This document shows, piece by piece, positions 1 through 6,571 of a stretch of DNA of 6,571 nucleotides. Made by a program: the position numbers and the translations under genes. The DNA comes from a virus (Duplodnaviria; Heunggongvirae; Uroviricota; Caudoviricetes). The notes under the pieces were generated by a model. The model saw only the letters and a program-made list of their open reading frames with translations. It did not search any database and was not told where the DNA came from. The stretch lies in IMG/VR virus record IMGVR_UViG_2563366935_000003; one strand, given 5' to 3'. The first letter of the stretch is position 1, and every line of letters starts with the position of its first letter.

Positions 1-53
1 AAGCAGAAAAAGCTTATTATGCTTCCATCGGAAACGATGATCTGGCAGCCTGA
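1..53 (+). CDS. IS629 transposase OrfB, C-terminal fragment (partial at window start)
   Basis: Same frame and sequence as the C-terminus of the 296-aa OrfB at 3503-4393 (...[16 protein letters not shown]); stop TGA at 51-53. Confidence 0.85.
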   Translation, partial: AEKAYYASIGNDDLAA

Positions 54-95
54 GTTCACAGATAAAACACTCTCCAGGAAACCCGGGGCGGTTCA
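1..95 (+). mobile_element. IS629 (IS3 family) 3'-terminal fragment, truncated by the window edge; ends with the right inverted repeat ...GGAAACCCGGGGCGGTTCA
   Basis: Bases 1-95 are identical to 4341-4435 of the complete copy in this window; the terminal IR ends at 95. Confidence 0.9.
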
Positions 96-350
96 TCTAA
101 AATTGCTATACTATTCATGTTGGTTTTTCTCCACGGATTTACCGACAACCGAAGCCCTGACTGTTCCAGCAGTTGGGGCTTCACTGTTTTGATTTCTTTG
201 CCGCATCAAGCATCACTTCTGAAAACGTGCGCTTGCCACTGAATACTCTTTCTCTTCTCAATTTTTCGTTCGTGCCAAATGATTCGCCATGAACAAAATT
301 TGGTCTTAAAATGGTAATCGCAATCTCTTTGACTACTGCATCCAAGCGAA

Positions 351-503
351 TCACACCGTTACCCCCTCTCTCTTCAGGCTGTCTATCAGGCGCTTGATAA
401 CCTCTGAGTTAAACGACCTGCACTCTTCCTTTGCCCTGCTACCGATAGCATCCTTTAACGACTGCGGCATCCTTACCAAAATCTTACTTATTTCTTTCTC
501 CAT
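351..503 (-). CDS. Arc-like ribbon-helix-helix transcriptional repressor (50 aa)
   Basis: Translation MEKEISKILVRMPQSLKDAIGSRAKEECRSFNSEVIKRLIDSLKREGVTV follows the Arc/MetJ RHH pattern (basic beta-strand RMP..L, then ..GRS.NSE.. helix), recalled resemblance to P22 Arc. ATG at 503 is preceded by a strong SD (GGAGGG, about 5-nt spacing); the longer track ORF to 539 begins at a TTG with no RBS. Confidence 0.7.
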   Translation of the reverse strand: MEKEISKILVRMPQSLKDAIGSRAKEECRSFNSEVIKRLIDSLKREGVTV

Positions 504-539
504 GTTACCCTCCACGCAAACAACTCTTTTCGAATACAA

Positions 540-568
540 AAGATAGCAAAGTGAGTATATCTAGTCAA
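540..568 (-). promoter_or_regulatory. Candidate sigma70 promoter for the Arc-like gene: -35 TTGACT (568-563), 17-nt spacer, -10 TATCTT (545-540)
   Basis: Read from the minus strand; hexamers close to consensus with canonical spacing, about 35 nt upstream of the start codon at 503; the -10 overlaps the left arm of the inverted repeat. Confidence 0.35.
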
Positions 569-593
569 AATTTTTTTGCATACACTTTGCTAT
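543..593. promoter_or_regulatory. Perfect 11-bp inverted repeat ATAGCAAAGTG (543-553) / CACTTTGCTAT (583-593), candidate operator in the divergent intergenic region
   Basis: Exact reverse complements separated by 29 bp, centred between two divergent RHH repressor genes; RHH repressors of this type bind palindromic operators. Confidence 0.45.
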
Positions 594-617
594 CAAATTG
601 AATACCAAAGGTGTTAT

Positions 618-866
618 ATGGCAAAGGGTGTGTCAATTTCTCCAACTACGGTAAGAATCCCTGAATCTTTACGCGAGGCTCTTGCTGTCAGAGCATCAAA
701 AAATGGTCGCTCTGTTAACTCCGAGATCGTCATGATTTTGCAAGCCGCGATTGATGAAGATAGGTCGCCAAAGTCAGTTGAGTCATTTGCTCAGCAAGAA
801 GCTGATAAATTCAAAGAGGCGCTACTTGAGACGCTAAAGACCATGTATGCTAAGGATGAAAAATAA
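618..866 (+). CDS. Mnt-like ribbon-helix-helix repressor (82 aa) with C-terminal helical extension
   Basis: MAKGVSISPTTVRIPESLREALAVRASKNGRSVNSEIVMILQAAI... carries the RHH core (NGRSVNSE) and a C-terminal helical tail (FKEALLETLKTMYAKDEK) like the Mnt tetramerisation helix; length matches Mnt (about 83 aa). ATG at 618; the upstream track extension starts at TTG. Stop overlaps the next start (TAATG). Confidence 0.7.
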   Translation: MAKGVSISPTTVRIPESLREALAVRASKNGRSVNSEIVMILQAAIDEDRSPKSVESFAQQEADKFKEALLETLKTMYAKDEK

Positions 867-1402
867 TGCTGCACACAATTCATTTCTTATGCCCTGTTAA
901 CACTGCCACTGTTGGGCAACTTCAGAACCACTGTCTCACCGCATTATCTCAAGGCGCAACTGAATTAAATATCCATATATCAAGTCAGGGAGGGGAAACT
1001 GCTGCTGGCTTTACTGCGTATAACTTTCTTAAGTCACTCCCTGTTACCGTTAGAACTCACAACATAAGCAATGTTGAATCCATAGCTAATATCGTTTTCC
1101 TGGCTGGCTCAGAACGTTTCGCAAACCCATTATCAAGATTCCTGTTACATCCTCTATTATGGTGCTTTGCCTCCCCAGCCGCCGACCATGCCAGATTGAG
1201 AGAGTACGGGAAATGCCTCGATAACGATCTTGATCGCTTCGTTGAGACGTTCAATATCGACATCGGAACCCATATTAGGTGGGCATCCCTGATAGCAGAC
1301 TCGACCATTTTGGATGCTAACAAGGCTCTTGAGCATGGCATAATTAATTCCATAAAAACTGCAAGGCTGGCATCCAATCAGGCAAACTGGTGGGTTGTTT
1401 GA
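866..1402 (+). CDS. ClpP-family (peptidase S14-like) serine protease paralog, 178 aa
   Basis: Collinear with ClpP core motifs: ISSQGG vs INSPGG, a Ser 29 residues after the GG (VESIA vs GQAASMG), His in RFLLHPL vs RVMIHQP, Asp in ADSTI vs ERDRF, and C-terminal EHGIINSI vs EYGLVDSI. Translationally coupled to the Mnt-like gene. Confidence 0.65.
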   Translation: MLHTIHFLCPVNTATVGQLQNHCLTALSQGATELNIHISSQGGETAAGFTAYNFLKSLPVTVRTHNISNVESIANIVFLAGSERFANPLSRFLLHPLLWCFASPAADHARLREYGKCLDNDLDRFVETFNIDIGTHIRWASLIADSTILDANKALEHGIINSIKTARLASNQANWWVV

Positions 1403-1427
1403 TGGGTAAATCATGATTACTCCTTAT

Positions 1428-1453
1428 AAAAAACCCACCTGACGGTGGGTTTA
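1428..1453. terminator. Bidirectional rho-independent terminator between convergent genes
   Basis: Perfect 9-bp stem AAACCCACC (1431-1439) / GGTGGGTTT (1444-1452) with loop TGAC, A-run upstream and T-run downstream; lies between the 3' ends of the ClpP-like gene (+) and the YafO-like gene (-). Confidence 0.6.
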
Positions 1454-1900
1454 GTCAAACATAGTGTTTCTAAAGTCTCTCGCATACCCTGCTAACACTC
1501 TCATTCTATTATGATTGTTAGCAGACATGTGAGCTACAGGATGAAAAAGAGCAATCAATGAATACCTGTTCTCATCAAAAAGATTTTGTGCATAAACGAG
1601 AGCGGTATTGGATGTTTTATGCCACTGCAACTTTTGCGGTGTGCTGATATCTGTGCCATTTTTTATTGGCTCAAATTTATTTTCACCAATTGCTAAATGA
1701 AGGTGCATAAGGCCTGCATCTTCAATATCAGGAGGTCGATGATAAGAGGTGTCTCTGCCAAAATAGCTGGGCAACGTTCCCGTAGACTTGTAGATGATAA
1801 AATCATCTACAAGTGTTTGTTTTAAATCAGGAAACTCAACAAAAACCGGGGAGAAAAAATAGTCAAAACTATCCTGATTATATTCCACGGTTACTTGCAT
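1451..1900 (-). CDS. YafO-family toxin-like protein (putative ribosome-dependent mRNA interferase), 149 aa
   Basis: Motifs DFIIYKSTGTLPSYFGRD, HLHLA, ALVYAQNLFDE, SLIALFHP and the C-terminal ANNHNRM...FR align collinearly with my recollection of E. coli YafO. ATG at 1900 with SD GAGGT; 8 nt downstream of the preceding gene's stop. Confidence 0.55.
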   Translation of the reverse strand: MQVTVEYNQDSFDYFFSPVFVEFPDLKQTLVDDFIIYKSTGTLPSYFGRDTSYHRPPDIEDAGLMHLHLAIGENKFEPIKNGTDISTPQKLQWHKTSNTALVYAQNLFDENRYSLIALFHPVAHMSANNHNRMRVLAGYARDFRNTMFD

Positions 1901-1908
1901 GTTTTACC

Positions 1909-2475
1909 TCAGTGGAAGTTACCAGAGTGAAACACACGAGTCCCGTGCTCAGCAAGCGCACGCAAACCAGCCATATCTACGGAACTATCAAAAACAACCG
2001 GAACACATGAGCGTTGTTTAATAAGACTATTCAGGTTGGTTACGGCAGATCTGGCATCAGCAACAACGATATAGATATCTCTTGCGATCTCTTTAAAATC
2101 AGCAGAAGCTTCTTTGAATACCGATTTCATTGCCCCTTCAAGTCCTCTCAATTGATGCTCTATCAATCGAGACTTTTCTGGTTCAATGATAGACAACACA
2201 TTGTCTACATTCTCATCGGTAGCGTTTGCAAGAACACGATAAGCGTATTTCAGCATTCGAGACAATTCTTTAATCGAAGACACCGCCTCATGAAGCTCAT
2301 CATTAGCCCGTTCACTGCTGAATGAGGATTGATGGTAAGCGTGCTGAACGTTATCAGTAACAACCACCTCACAACTGAACGCAGAAGCTTGCTGTAATAG
2401 CAAACCTATTGCGACTCCAGCTTTGGCAGCGTTCAAGCTAAACATTTCATCAATCCCATTAGTCTCATTGCTCAT
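1909..2475 (-). CDS. Hypothetical protein (188 aa), first gene of the operon with the YafO-like toxin; candidate non-canonical antitoxin or partner
   Basis: ATG at 2475 preceded by a near-perfect SD (AAGAAGGAGG); the track ORF start at 2505 is a TTG without RBS. No recognisable domain; sequence composition suggests a mostly helical soluble protein. Confidence 0.6.
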   Translation of the reverse strand: MSNETNGIDEMFSLNAAKAGVAIGLLLQQASAFSCEVVVTDNVQHAYHQSSFSSERANDELHEAVSSIKELSRMLKYAYRVLANATDENVDNVLSIIEPEKSRLIEHQLRGLEGAMKSVFKEASADFKEIARDIYIVVADARSAVTNLNSLIKQRSCVPVVFDSSVDMAGLRALAEHGTRVFHSGNFH

Positions 2476-2650
2476 ACAAACCTCCTTCTTATCGGAGATT
2501 ATCAATAGCTATGCATCCATTGAATACACGCTATGCGCAATAAGTTTACGTCACGTGATATCATTATGCAACCACCGTTCTATCACCGACTAACTTTACT
2601 CCCACTCCTATACATCATCTGGTATCCTGCGCAAAACTAAGGAGGTTGGT

Positions 2651-3001
2651 GTGAATGCTCAGTCTGTCATCATGGTTTTCCTTGGGCTGATTGTCGCAAA
2701 ACTATATCCAGACTGGTGGAAAGGGGCATTAGCTACTGTCGCCATCTATTTGCTTTTATCCATCGTTAAGCGATCACTCGCTGAGACCGTAAATCAAGCA
2801 AAACGTTTCTCATTTAAGAGTTTAATAAACTATGTTACTGGGCTTATTTTTTGCCTTTCAATTCTGATCGCTTCGGCTTTTTTGCCCGTATCAATAGCTA
2901 ATTTTTTTGGCGCACCATATGAGGTAGGTTATCTATTCTCTGTTTCCTGTCTTGCCATTGCTCTTCTTTACCTGTGGACGAGATCAAAGAATAAAAATTA
3001 G
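2651..3001 (+). CDS. Small polytopic inner-membrane protein (116 aa, about 4 predicted TM helices), function unknown
   Basis: GTG start 5 nt after a strong SD (TAAGGAGG, 2638-2645); four hydrophobic stretches (SVIMVFLGLIVAKL, ALATVAIYLLLSIV, LINYVTGLIFCLSILIASAFL, GYLFSVSCLAIALLYLW) and a basic C-terminus. Confidence 0.6.
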   Translation: MNAQSVIMVFLGLIVAKLYPDWWKGALATVAIYLLLSIVKRSLAETVNQAKRFSFKSLINYVTGLIFCLSILIASAFLPVSIANFFGAPYEVGYLFSVSCLAIALLYLWTRSKNKN

Positions 3002-3125
3002 CCATCCGTGGCTGCCAGTTATTGAGCTTCTTTTTGTGATGCCTGTGCGACTCTGGTGAGCGATTGTGTGACCGTACTGATCGCTCTGTCATATGCTGTG
3101 CTACCTTTTGGCGTATTTGCCAGAC

Positions 3126-3150
3126 TGAACCGCCCCGGGAATCCTGGAGA
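3126..3150. repeat. IS629 left terminal inverted repeat
   Basis: TGAACCGCCCCGGGAATCCTGGAGA is an imperfect inverted match to the right end at 4411-4435. Confidence 0.8.
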
Positions 3151-3179
3151 CTAAACTTCCTGAGAAAGAGGTAAACAGG

Positions 3180-3506
3180 ATGACTAAAAATACTCGTTTT
3201 TCCCCCGAAGTCCGTCAACGGGCAGTCCGTATGGTTCTGGAAAGTCAGAGCGAATATGACTCACAATGGGCGACAATTTGTTCCATTGCTCCAAAGATTG
3301 GCTGTACGCCGGAGACTCTGCGTGTCTGGGTTCGCCAGCATGAGCGGGATACCGGGGGCGGTGATGGAGGGCTCACCACCGCTGAACGTCAGCGTCTGAA
3401 AGAGCTGGAACGTGAAAAGCGTGAACTGCGCCGCAGTAACGATATCCTTCGCCAGGCTTCCGCTTATTTTGCGAAGGCGGAGTTCGACCGCCTCTGGAAA
3501 AAATGA
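3180..3506 (+). CDS. IS629 OrfA (108 aa; helix-turn-helix / leucine-zipper transposase subunit)
   Basis: [65 protein letters not shown]... is recognised as IS629/IS1203 OrfA; SD AGAGG upstream of the ATG. Confidence 0.9.
3497..3503 (+). other. Candidate programmed -1 ribosomal frameshift site (A-run GAAAAAA) at the OrfA/OrfB overlap
   Basis: OrfB lies in the -1 frame relative to OrfA and overlaps it by 4 nt; six consecutive A (3498-3503) sit in the last two OrfA codons. IS3-family elements make an OrfAB fusion transposase by -1 slippage on A-rich heptamers. Confidence 0.4.
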
Positions 3507-4393
3507 TGCCACTGCTGGATAAGCTGCGTGAGCAGTACGGGGTCGGACCGCTATGCAGCGAACTGCATATTGCCCCGTCAACGTATTACCACTGTCAGCA
3601 ACAGCGACATCATCCGGATAAACGCAGTGCCCGTGCGCAGCGCGATGACTGGCTGAAGAAAGAGATACAGCGCGTATACGATGAAAATCACAAGGTATAC
3701 GGTGTGCGTAAAGTCTGGCGTCAGTTGTTACGGGAAGGTATCAGAGTGGCCAGATGCACTGTGGCACGTCTCATGGCGGTTATGGGACTTGCCGGTGTTC
3801 TCCGGGGTAAAAAGGTCCGTACGACCATCAGCCGGAAAGCCGTTGCCGCAGGCGACCGCGTAAACCGTCAGTTCGTGGCAGAACGACCTGACCAGCTGTG
3901 GGTGGCTGATTTTACTTACGTCAGCACATGGCGGGGCTTCGTCTATGTGGCGTTCATCATTGATGTGTTTGCCGGATACATCGTGGGGTGGCGGGTCTCA
4001 TCGTCCATGGAAACGACATTCGTGCTGGATGCACTGGAGCAGGCGTTATGGGCCCGTCGACCGTCCGGCACGGTCCATCACAGTGATAAAGGTTCTCAGT
4101 ATGTATCGCTGGCCTACACACAGCGGCTTAAGGAAGCCGGATTACTGGCATCAACAGGAAGTACAGGCGACTCGTATGACAACGCGATGGCGGAGAGCAT
4201 CAATGGTCTTTACAAAGCGGAGGTAATACACCGTAAGAGCTGGAAAAACCGTGCAGAAGTGGAACTGGCCACACTCACGTGGGTGGACTGGTATAACAAT
4301 CGACGATTGCTGGAAAGGCTGGGCCATACTCCTCCGGCAGAAGCAGAAAAAGCTTATTATGCTTCCATCGGAAACGATGATCTGGCAGCCTGA
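3503..4393 (+). CDS. IS629 OrfB (296 aa; DDE/RNase H-fold transposase catalytic domain)
   Basis: [30 protein letters not shown]... recognised as IS629 OrfB; IS3-family catalytic-core signatures are visible ([24 protein letters not shown]). Confidence 0.9.
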
Positions 4394-4410
4394 GTTCACA
4401 GATAAAACAC

Positions 4411-4435
4411 TCTCCAGGAAACCCGGGGCGGTTCA
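4411..4435. repeat. IS629 right terminal inverted repeat
   Basis: Reverse complement TGAACCGCCCCGGGTTTCCTGGAGA matches the left end. Confidence 0.8.
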
Positions 4436-5593
4436 CATGATGATTGAGTCTGCGTCCTGTTCAATGCTTCCTGAATCACGCAAATCTGCGTTTGTCGGGC
4501 GTTTGTTTGGTCGCTTCTCAACATCGCGTGAAAGCTGACTCAGGGAAATAACCGGTGTTTTCAGGTCTTTCGCCATCGCCTTCAGGCTTCCGGAGATGTG
4601 AGCAATTGCGAGGTCGTTGCGGTCTGCTTTCGGCTTCTCAATCAGGCCAAGATAATCCGCCATGATGAGTGAGAGGTTTGGATTTTCCTGTTTGTGCCGT
4701 TCTGCGATTGAGCGTATTTCTTCGACCGATAATCGCGAGGCATCGACTACCCATACATCCAAATCTGCAAGCTGACTCATGCCGTTAGCAACACGTGCCC
4801 AGCCCTCGTCATCCATCGATGCAGGATTTCGCAGTACGCTAACCGACATCCTCCCGGCGTTGGCAATGCTTCGCTCTGCAATCTGCAATGCGCTCATTTC
4901 CATTGAGAAAATCAATACCCCGCGCCGGACGTCAGAACCAGGAATAACGCGGCTTGCAACGCCTTCGGCAATCTTCAGCGCCAGTTCGGTTTTCCCCATA
5001 CCAGGACGAGCAGCGATTATCACCAGGTCTTCCGCGTTCATCCCTCCGGTGATGGCATCAAGTTCTTCGATTCCGGTCTTCAGGGTATCGGACTCTTCTC
5101 CGTTCCTCAGACGCCTGTCAAGCGTGTCAGTGTAGTCGGTGATGATTTCCCCTAACCGTACAGGTTTAACCTCGTCACGGGGCTTTCTGATGGCTGAGAG
5201 ACGTTTTACAAGTTCATCCATCGCCTGACTCGATGCGTCGATGGTTCCGCTTTGGATTGGTTCACGCATTTCATCCATGATTTCCAGCACCAGACGGCGG
5301 TGATAGTTATCCGCGACCATTCCGGCATATCCCTTCAGGTTTGCGGCGCTCGGGCAGTTTTTGCTGGTCATCAGGATTGACGTGAAATGCTCCTCTCCGC
5401 ACGCCTCGGCAACCATCAGCGCGTCGATTAGGTTTCTGTTTCTCGCCTGCTTCCGGATAACCTCGAAGGCTTTCCGGTAGAGCGGAATTGAAAACGCTTC
5501 CGGCTCCAGCGTTGCAAGAACGTCACTGGCGGTTGGAGTTAATCCACCAATCAGCAGGCCACCGATAACGCTCGCTTCGATATCCTGTCTCAT
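4433..5593 (-). pseudogene. Phage DnaB-like replicative helicase, 3'-truncated by IS629 (about 55-60 C-terminal residues missing)
   Basis: 386-aa translation with DnaB N-terminal domain, Walker A ([10 protein letters not shown]), Walker B (LIMADYLGL) and the motif [32 protein letters not shown]. Reading frame stops only 3 codons after EQDAD, using the TGA formed by the IS629 terminus (4433-4435), where E. coli DnaB has about 55 more residues. Confidence 0.85.
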
Positions 5594-5947
5594 GCAATCC
5601 CCCTGTCTGCAAACTTCCCTTCCCGAACTCCCGTTAACGAGTCTTCTCTCAGCAGGTAATCAAAATCAGCCGTCCAGCCCGTGTCGTTGTCTCCGAAGTA
5701 AAACGGCTTGGCCTGATGCACAAACGCCCTGACATACGCTCTGAAACCGTCCACGTTTGGCGTTTTCAGTTGCGGGATGATTTTCTTCAGGCGGCGTTTT
5801 CGTTTCTCGTTGACCGCAACAGCGTGTGGCAGTCTGTCACCGACTTCGGTGTTGTAGGCGTTCAGGAAGGATTCGTAGTCGATTCGTTCTGCCTTGCGAC
5901 GTTCAGGTTTAACCTGCCCATCGCCTCCCCCATTGGGGGGTAGGGGG

Positions 5948-5975
5948 GTATTATTTATATTCTTGTTAATACCTT
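5948..5975. other. AT-rich stretch adjacent to the iterons (candidate DNA-unwinding element), next to a G/C-rich near-palindrome CCCCCATTGGGGGG (5926-5939)
   Basis: attatttatattcttgttaatacc is strongly AT-rich relative to its surroundings and lies immediately downstream of the iterons in the gene's direction, mirroring ori-lambda organisation. Confidence 0.4.
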
Positions 5976-5980
5976 CTTGT

Positions 5981-6110
5981 TCATGATGTGCGGTTGTTTG
6001 TGCGGCTTCATGTGCGCTTTCATGTGCGGCATGTACGCTGAAAGCCGCGCTATTGCTGGCTTCATCATGTGCGGCATCATGTGCGGTTGTTTGTGCGGCT
6101 TCATGTGCGG
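5981..6110. repeat. Iteron array (candidate phage replication origin): about 8 copies of a 12-bp unit, consensus yTTCATGTGCGG, in two clusters; includes an exact 31-bp duplication (5986-6016 and 6079-6109)
   Basis: Directly visible tandem periodicity: tgtgcggttgtt / tgtgcggcttca / tgtgcgctttca / tgtgcggcatgt ... catgtgcggcatca / tgtgcggttgtt / tgtgcggcttca / tgtgcggg. Lies inside the initiator gene, as ori-lambda lies inside O. Confidence 0.6.
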
Positions 6111-6354
6111 GTAAATTGTCCATTTTTTGAGCATATTCATGGTAATTTGTGATGGTTATCACACGGCCTTTTTGCTTCTCTCCATCAATGGAGATCATCC
6201 CCTCTTTCACAAAAACCTGAAGCATCCGCTCAACCTGATCACGGCTTGCTGGCTTGCCATGTCTGTCGCATAACTGAAGACCTAAATCAGCTGCTGTCAC
6301 AACCAGTTGACCGGGTTGCAGATGCCATTCATGACCTTTGAAATTCGCTTTGTA

Positions 6355-6571
6355 TGAACCGCCCCGGGTTTCCTGGAGAGTGTTTTATCTGTGAACTCAG
6401 GCTGCCAGATCATCGTTTCCGATGGAAGCATAATAAGCTTTTTCTGCTTCTGCCGGAGGAGTATGGCCCAGCCTTTCCAGCAATCGTCGATTGTTATACC
6501 AGTCCACCCACGTGAGTGTGGCCAGTTCCACTTCTGCACGGTTTTTCCAGCTCTTACGGTGTATTACCTCC
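6355..6571 (-). mobile_element. IS629 3'-terminal fragment in inverted orientation, truncated by the window edge
   Basis: 6355-6571 is the exact reverse complement of 4219-4435 of the complete copy; the terminal IR begins at 6355 (TGAACCGCCCCGGGTTTCC...). Confidence 0.9.
6397..6571 (-). CDS. IS629 transposase OrfB, C-terminal fragment (minus strand, partial at window end)
   Basis: Reverse complement is identical to the 3' end of OrfB; stop codon is at 6397-6399 on the minus strand. Confidence 0.85.
   Translation of the reverse strand, partial: EVIHRKSWKNRAEVELATLTWVDWYNNRRLLERLGHTPPAEAEKAYYASIGNDDLAA

Follow-up and report, generated by a model that had tools for sequence, protein, structure and literature searches.

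The DNA analysed here is a 6,571-nt stretch held as IMG/VR record IMGVR_UViG_2563366935_000003 (hereafter the window). It consists of two unique segments of a prophage, at positions 96-3125 and 4436-6354, separated and bordered by copies of the insertion sequence (IS) IS629. One copy, designated X, is complete (1310 bp, 3126-4435, + strand, delimited by a repeat search and by direct reading). The left edge of the window is formed by copy A, the right end of IS629 (IS positions 1216-1310; window 1-95, + strand, 100% identical to 4341-4435), and the right edge by copy Y, also a right end (IS positions 1094-1310; 217 bp, 6355-6571, − strand, a 100% identical reverse complement of 4219-4435). The window was matched at 100% to assembly GCA_000407685.1 (scaffold KE136581.1, about 1106682-1113252), in which it is one contig of a draft short-read scaffold, bounded by runs of 1085 and 895 N. 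These runs lie inside the edge IS copies, and the apparently partial copies are therefore contig ends rather than truncated elements. A first-pass annotation of the window had described three identical copies of IS629; the shared parts are indeed 100% identical, but only one of the copies is complete, two are contig ends and the third is inverted.

IS629 belongs to the IS3 family. It is about 1310 bp long, has imperfect terminal inverted repeats of about 25 bp ending in 5'-TG...CA-3', carries orfA and orfB, uses a -1 frameshift, moves by copy-out-paste-in transposition and generates 3-bp target-site duplications (TSDs); in ISfinder practice, isoforms of IS629 are no less than 95% identical to it in nucleotide sequence. 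The length and terminal repeats of copy X are those of IS629: the inverted repeats (left, 3126-3150; right, 4411-4435) are 25 bp long, match at 23 of 25 positions and begin with TGAACCGCCCCGGG. The two-gene organization with a programmed -1 frameshift is also present. orfA (3180-3506, +) encodes 108 amino acids with an HTH_Tnp_1 domain (Pfam), orfB (3503-4393, +) encodes 296 amino acids with HTH_21 and rve domains (Pfam), and an ALIL frameshift pseudoknot (3461-3577; Rfam, 120 bits) spans the overlap of the two genes. Identical copies are labelled "programmed frameshift" in RefSeq.

Copy X is 99.1-99.5% identical to full-length copies on the virulence plasmids of Shigella boydii and S. flexneri, which supports its identification as IS629, and 96.0-96.2% identical to the IS1203-type element of Escherichia coli O157:H7 and pO157 (50-51 substitutions, 0 gaps). 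IS629 subtypes, one IS1203-like and one Shigella-like, differ by 4-5% (Rump et al., PMC3271280). Judged against the Shigella plasmid and O157 copies, the element in the window is assigned to the Shigella-like subtype.

Both unique segments are 100% identical to parts of an IS-free prophage of avian pathogenic E. coli (APEC) strain O1 (locus L006) and keep their order and strand there: window 96-3125 corresponds to positions 6624-9653 of this prophage and window 4436-6354 to positions 30821-32739. The APEC O1 prophage is located between tRNA-Arg/intS and torI/dsdC, and its gene set is complete from intS to torI. It has the gene order of P22, an acyltransferase gene next to int, and a tailspike gene annotated as endosialidase in relatives. 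The scaffold containing the window is collinear with it throughout, and the gaps of 1085, 895 and 1005 N each fit one IS. On the scaffold and in relatives the genes run tRNA-Arg, intS, acyltransferase, endosialidase tailspike, ant, then gene 16, then P, O, cII, cro, cI, and finally torI and dsdC. The argW site next to intS, the P22 gene order, the immI region, the endosialidase tailspike and the gene in the neuO position mark the prophage as P22-like/CUS-3-like, and the same prophage was found in APEC O1, S88 and O2:K1:H4 APEC strains. The host, which carries this CUS-3-like prophage at argW, is thus an extraintestinal E. coli of K1 type, neither O157 nor Shigella; the first-pass annotation, which had judged the density of IS629 to be typical of O157:H7 and Shigella genomes, was mistaken in this respect.

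Mapping of the IS flanks against complete genomes, which had been proposed with the first-pass annotation, allowed the ancestral junctions to be reconstructed on the IS-free APEC O1 prophage (positions given below refer to this prophage unless assigned to the window or to a numbered locus). Copy X is preceded by TTTGCCAGAC and followed by CATGATGATT: the left flank ends in CCAGAC and the right flank starts with CATGATG, giving the junctions CCAGAC/TGAACCGCC and GCGGTTCA/CATGATGATT. GAC thus faces CAT, and direct reading confirmed that there is no 3-bp TSD. A simple + insertion at CAT would have had GAGCAT/TGAACCGCC on its left side. The left end of copy X follows position 9653, in gene 16, and its right end precedes position 30821, in the helicase gene, with a loss of 21,167 bp; the two flanks do originate from different contexts, as had been suspected, and lie that distance apart in the intact prophage. 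The deletion took what remained of gene 16, every head, tail, packaging, lysis and nin gene, and the 3'-terminal part of the helicase gene. A comparable structure was found at copy A (+), whose left end follows position 3673, adjoining the tailspike gene, and whose right end precedes position 6624; here 2,950 bp were lost, comprising the 5' part of the tailspike gene and ant, again with no TSD. Copies X and A lack a TSD because both are deletion joints.

Copy Y (−) is a simple insertion, with its right end after position 32739 and its left end before position 32737 (TTTGTA/IS/GTATGG, TSD GTA). The absence of matching TSDs had been regarded as common to the copies in the window; this held for X and A, and the GTA repeat of copy Y came to light when the full edge copies were examined. 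A fourth IS629-group copy of the source strain lies outside the window, between cI and the N region (locus L018, reverse complement 15207-16636). It is a simple, divergent insertion (− strand, positions 34710-34712, TSD CTT) with ends ~97% identical to the window IS, and therefore two IS629 subtypes coexist in one prophage. TSDs of 3 bp, sometimes 4 bp, accompany simple insertions of the element: GTA (copy Y), CTT (fourth copy) and, in relatives, AAC, GCC, ACC, ACA and CTTT. In O157 genomes, a TSD was present at only 21 of 47 IS629 sites (PMC3271280).

We consider it probable, at roughly 60%, that the window is one piece of a P22/CUS-3-like prophage at argW (tRNA-Arg) of a K1-type extraintestinal E. 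coli, and that Shigella-type IS629 is breaking this prophage down where it is integrated. The most likely route to copy X would consist of two insertions followed by recombination: (i) IS629 would have entered the CAT site of the helicase gene as a + copy, (ii) another + copy would have entered gene 16 at GAC, and (iii) RecA-type homologous recombination between these direct copies would have deleted 21,167 bp plus one IS. The mismatched flanks of copy X would be what this recombination left behind. Copy A is a similar joint across the 2,950-bp loss, and copy Y is a plain insertion into the replication-initiator gene.

Every IS junction was also mapped in 13 other assemblies carrying this prophage, 12 of them finished genomes and one a draft. 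Simple insertions with 3-bp TSDs were found in FY26 (AAC and GCC), E10 (CCC and ACC), BEN5202 (at 4755-4757) and MS8345 (ACA, in erf), and the draft assembly GCA_000456885.1 has insertions with TSD CAG and with the 4-bp TSD CTTT. Recombination between IS copies was observed directly in sister strains. MS8345 carries two direct copies, one with its right end after position 9747 and its left end before 28313, the other with its right end after 36766 and its left end before 36764, while FDAARGOS_1302 has the same outer structures and a single hybrid copy, with its right end after 9753 and its left end before 36764; this pair documents a deletion by recombination between direct IS copies. In BEN5202, the 5' tailspike segment 4755-5790 lies flipped between two IS copies of opposite orientation and was afterwards shortened by 1.6 kb (locus L016, 8311-9347), direct evidence of an IS-IS inversion followed by deletion. 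Together with the collinear deletion at copy X, these cases substantiate the IS-mediated rearrangement that had been proposed for the window. Deletions between gene 16 and the helicase gene, equivalent to that at copy X, are present in the finished genomes of AH20K059 and B20123.

Two relatives have IS junctions of other kinds. APEC E12053 carries an IS copy in gene 16 (locus L009, 9608/10919) with both flanks present, no duplication, and 6 bp of the target lost (10192-10197). In AH19K002, a 26-bp sequence standing alone behind a complete IS (locus L015, 8311-8336) duplicates the right terminal repeat of that IS, and beyond it lies the flank (right end at 6177) that SCU-116 also has; the solo repeat is an unusual footprint of an aberrant or abortive IS event.

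Two candidates for shared ancestry of the window junctions were rejected. AH20K059 was considered to have this helicase junction in common with the window, its IS merely turned around at the spot; yet, compared base by base, its left end is at 30823 whereas the right end of copy X is at 30821, and the two junctions are independent because recombination cannot swap which IS end a flank joins. GCA_000456885.1, the only other assembly found by a look-up of the truncated replication protein, was considered as a sister strain sharing copy Y; its insertion is an independent one, 33 bp away, with TSD CAG.

Several results weigh against the proposed course of events. The source is a short-read draft, and the linkage across copy X depends on the assembler. 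The four IS/flank junctions of the window and its exact arrangement were found in 0 of 5,426 complete E. coli genomes, where full-coverage matches were made up of two separate pieces, and the postulated intermediates (an IS at GAC, 9651-9653, and a + copy at CAT in this prophage) were absent from the same 5,426 genomes. As neither junction nor intermediate occurs there, the two-step route to copy X has not been observed directly. Moreover, junctions in sister strains are offset by 2-6 bp (30821 versus 30823, 9747 versus 9753, 2901 versus 2905, and the 6-bp loss at 10191/10198). Such offsets are not explained by homologous recombination alone; they hint at an additional IS-adjacent deletion process.

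The same offsets lend some weight to a one-step origin of copy X, in which a single IS629 at CAT underwent aberrant strand transfer or breakage at its left end, removing 21 kb while the IS was kept; an IEE-like PrimPol/helicase, the product of an iee gene resembling ECs1305, might have helped, and neither a second IS nor homologous recombination would have been involved. Deletions adjacent to IS629, from a few nucleotides to more than 40 kb, have been reported (PMC9943667). Among the relatives, endpoints beside equally oriented copies are varied, with left flanks at 2901, 2905, 3100, 3214 and 3673 and right flanks at 5653, 5880, 6177, 6624 and 7422. The solo terminal repeat of AH19K002 can be read as aberrant end processing, and recombination could not have produced the 2-6 bp offsets between related junctions. 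Nevertheless, every large difference could equally have been made by a nearby insertion in the same orientation followed by recombination, a process that was actually seen in the MS8345/FDAARGOS_1302 pair. The final structure would be identical to the two-step product and the present data do not separate the two routes, but the one-step route appears to us the less likely one.

The dependence of the linkage on the assembler raises the question of an artefact, in which a collapsed IS consensus was threaded between the gene 16 flank and the helicase flank of different copies, creating a false 21-kb deletion and a false identity of copies. The contig is bounded by N-gaps inside IS copies, copy X was the only one closed, gaps remaining at three other IS copies of the scaffold, and its junctions are common to no other assembly. 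Yet both junctions (GAC/left end and right end/CAT) lie within contiguous sequence that extends past the 25-bp repeats into end-specific sequence, and the collinearity of the scaffold with the reference prophage, with gaps that fit single IS copies, leaves no room for the missing 21 kb. AH20K059 and B20123, whose genomes are finished, have deletions of the same kind from gene 16 to the helicase gene, and the assembler kept the divergent fourth copy, with its 97% identical ends, distinct. An assembly artefact is improbable. Least credible of all is a composite transposon in which two direct IS629 copies carried the 3-kb block 96-3125 as a unit. The first-pass annotation had noted that this block is bracketed by direct copies, which was confirmed, and recombination between them could indeed delete it; the geometry alone speaks for its mobilization. 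The block, however, is 100% identical to the IS-free APEC O1 prophage and has the same place and orientation there, collinearity continues beyond both IS copies, and the DNA that borders the unit on the outside belongs to the prophage and shows no TSD. The block resides in the argW prophage in all relatives examined, in its native place in all 14 strains, and each of 49 genomes has a single full-length copy of it. A unit bounded by one TSD and present at more than one genomic location was not seen, and mobilization as a composite element was accordingly set aside.

The identity of the copies was likewise reconsidered in view of the draft source. In a short-read assembly such identity is partly a product of the assembler; it is weak evidence and not an independent sign of recent expansion, so that the recent spread of IS629 proposed on this basis cannot be read from the contig. 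Finished relatives provide information of their own. At IS position 294 (window 3419), copy X has G, and all of the same-subtype full-length copies compared in finished relatives have T (22 of 22). Apart from strain-private single-nucleotide polymorphisms (SNPs), this base is the sole difference between copy X and the same-subtype copies of finished genomes. A private A>T change at IS position 908 is common to both copies of FDAARGOS_1302, which suggests within-genome spread or gene conversion. The near-identity of IS copies is thus real in this lineage, as finished relatives show near-identical copies and shared strain-private SNPs. Counts of matched places suggest roughly 12-26 IS ends per genome in these strains.

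The CAT site in the helicase gene was observed to be a recurrent target. In O157:H7 strain BB24-1, a simple IS1203-type insertion lies exactly at 30821-30823, with TSD CAT (locus L007, matches at 2713-2715 and 4026-4028; further matches were contig ends in loci L021-L027). A left IS end at the CAT site, or 2 bp off, was found in six finished genomes, three of O157:H7 and three resembling sequence type 95 (ST95); in AH20K059, B20123 and OZ546967 the left end is 2 bp beyond CAT. In short-read contigs from unrelated runs, a left IS end (in two sequence variants) or a right end is fused to the same CATGATGATT. Because CAT recurs as an IS629 target, the right junction of copy X was taken to be the insertion joint and the left one to be secondary. 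The site is occupied in O157:H7 by the IS1203-type element, in other O157-like phage backgrounds in both orientations, and in the CUS-3-like prophage described here.

A second recurrent target was identified at 7419-7424 (window 891-896), at the junction of the mnt-like and ClpP-like genes, where the ClpP-like gene starts. FY26 and BEN5202 have a − copy there with TSD GCC, in E10 the copy is +, 96% identical and of the IS1203-type, with TSD CCC, and in E12053 the right end of an IS is at 7422; two IS subtypes and both orientations are thus represented at this spot. IS629-type elements thus probably have precise, orientation-independent hot spots in lambdoid/P22-like prophage DNA, namely the CAT site of the helicase gene and the mnt/ClpP-like junction. 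No target consensus was visible among the 10 insertion sites compared; for this reason, structure or a link to replication or transcription could be what determines the hot spots.

The left unique segment of the window begins with the first 23 nt of ant (96-118, −; 6624-6646 in the prophage). This stump adjoins the gene for the sar antisense RNA of the P22 immI region (119-185, +; Rfam RF00262, 83.9 bits, E 3.9e-17), so that the regulator was kept and its target gene deleted. An arc-like repressor gene of immI (351-503, −; Pfam Arc) follows, annotated by RefSeq in identical loci as "Arc family DNA-binding protein", and then an mnt-like repressor gene of the Arc/ribbon-helix-helix (RHH) family (618-866, +; Pfam Arc/FitA-like RHH). 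Next come a gene for a ClpP-like (S14) protease (866-1402, +; Pfam CLP_protease, E 2.2e-11), part of a prophage moron block, and a YafO-family toxin gene (1451-1900, −; Pfam YafO_toxin, E 3.4e-22). Upstream of the toxin gene, an open reading frame (ORF) for a 188-amino-acid protein (1909-2475, −) may encode the partner of the YafO-like toxin; this protein had no Pfam match and no significant PADLOC match, and a PADLOC scan of the proteins of block 96-3125 gave no defence-system match. An ORF for a small hydrophobic protein (2651-3001, +; 109-116 amino acids, hypothetical in relatives) precedes the last 107 nt of a gene for a P22 gene-16-like injection protein (3019-3125, −), which ends at the left deletion endpoint, 9653.

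Deletions approach from both sides, and none of them extends into window 894-3125 (7422-9653) in the 14 IS-bearing versions of the prophage (13 relatives and the source; a small sample). The block of genes for the ClpP-like, YafO-like, 188-amino-acid and small membrane proteins may be retained by a toxin module or by selection.

The right unique segment holds two genes on the − strand. The gene for a DnaB-like replicative helicase (phage P; 4436-5593) lacks its last 219 nt, with the breakpoint at CAT (4436-4438; 30821-30823 in the prophage), and the gene for a replication initiator (phage O-like; 5590-6354) lacks 123 nt at its 5' end. Within the latter, at 5982-6109, there are eight short tandem repeats of the CATGTGCG/TTTGTGCGG type, spaced at 12 bp and arranged in two clusters, which encode a recurring HEAAQTTAH-like stretch. 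By analogy with lambdoid O genes, these repeats may be origin iterons.

CUS-3 is a P22-like, K1-specific prophage that carries neuO and lies at argW, a description supported by the annotation of CP000711 and by PMC3046976. The prophage of the window resembles CUS-3 (CP000711) in its site next to intS, the acyltransferase gene in the neuO position, the endosialidase tailspike and the P22-type gene order. The helicase and replication genes of CUS-3 are 98.6% identical to window 4436-6354, and 30.9 kb of the intact APEC O1 prophage align with CUS-3 at 97-100%. The immI/moron module is different: only two 84-bp stretches of window 96-3125 aligned, at about 80% identity, and a search of phage databases with this 3-kb block gave partial matches only. 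In contrast to CUS-3, the prophage of the window is a non-functional remnant without morphogenesis and lysis genes. The gene in the neuO position was annotated at lengths from 336 to 924 bp in otherwise identical loci (L001-L004 and L009-L012), and BLAST maps were offset or overlapping there; this variation fits the variable heptanucleotide repeat in the annotation of CUS-3.

The immI region of the window shares with that of P22 the sar RNA (Rfam), two Arc-family repressor genes, the start of ant and the P22 arrangement next to gene 16. It differs in that ant is cut to 23 nt and that mnt and gene 16 are separated by additional genes, namely those for the ClpP-like protease and the YafO-like toxin and two without assigned function.

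With regard to the IS, the closest comparison is IS629 of O157:H7 (isoforms IS1203 and IS3411), the same 1310-bp element with the frameshift pseudoknot and 3-bp TSDs. In O157, 62% of IS629 sites are in prophages (PMC3271280, PMC9943667). The preference for prophages and the frequent lack of TSDs (PMC3271280) and the IS-associated deletions (PMC9943667) are as observed here, and the CAT site is likewise occupied in a lambdoid helicase gene of O157:H7 BB24-1. The present case differs in its host, a K1-type extraintestinal E. coli that carries a CUS-3-like prophage, and in its IS, the Shigella-like subtype, which is 96.1% identical to the IS1203-type.

In kind, such decay is ordinary and already known, the helicase-gene hot spot is only a mildly new point, and the importance of the case beyond bookkeeping is slight. 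It also serves as a caution that IS copies at the ends of draft contigs should not be taken as identical copies. The window offers a clean worked example of IS629 inactivating and trimming a neuO-carrying, K1-capsule-modifying prophage of the CUS-3 type, in which the virion and lysis genes were removed and the integrase-neuO end and a small toxin-containing block were kept. For IS629-based strain typing, independent occupation of the same site means that strains with a site in common need not have inherited it from one ancestor, and the CAT hot spot could help in understanding how elements of the IS3 family choose their targets.

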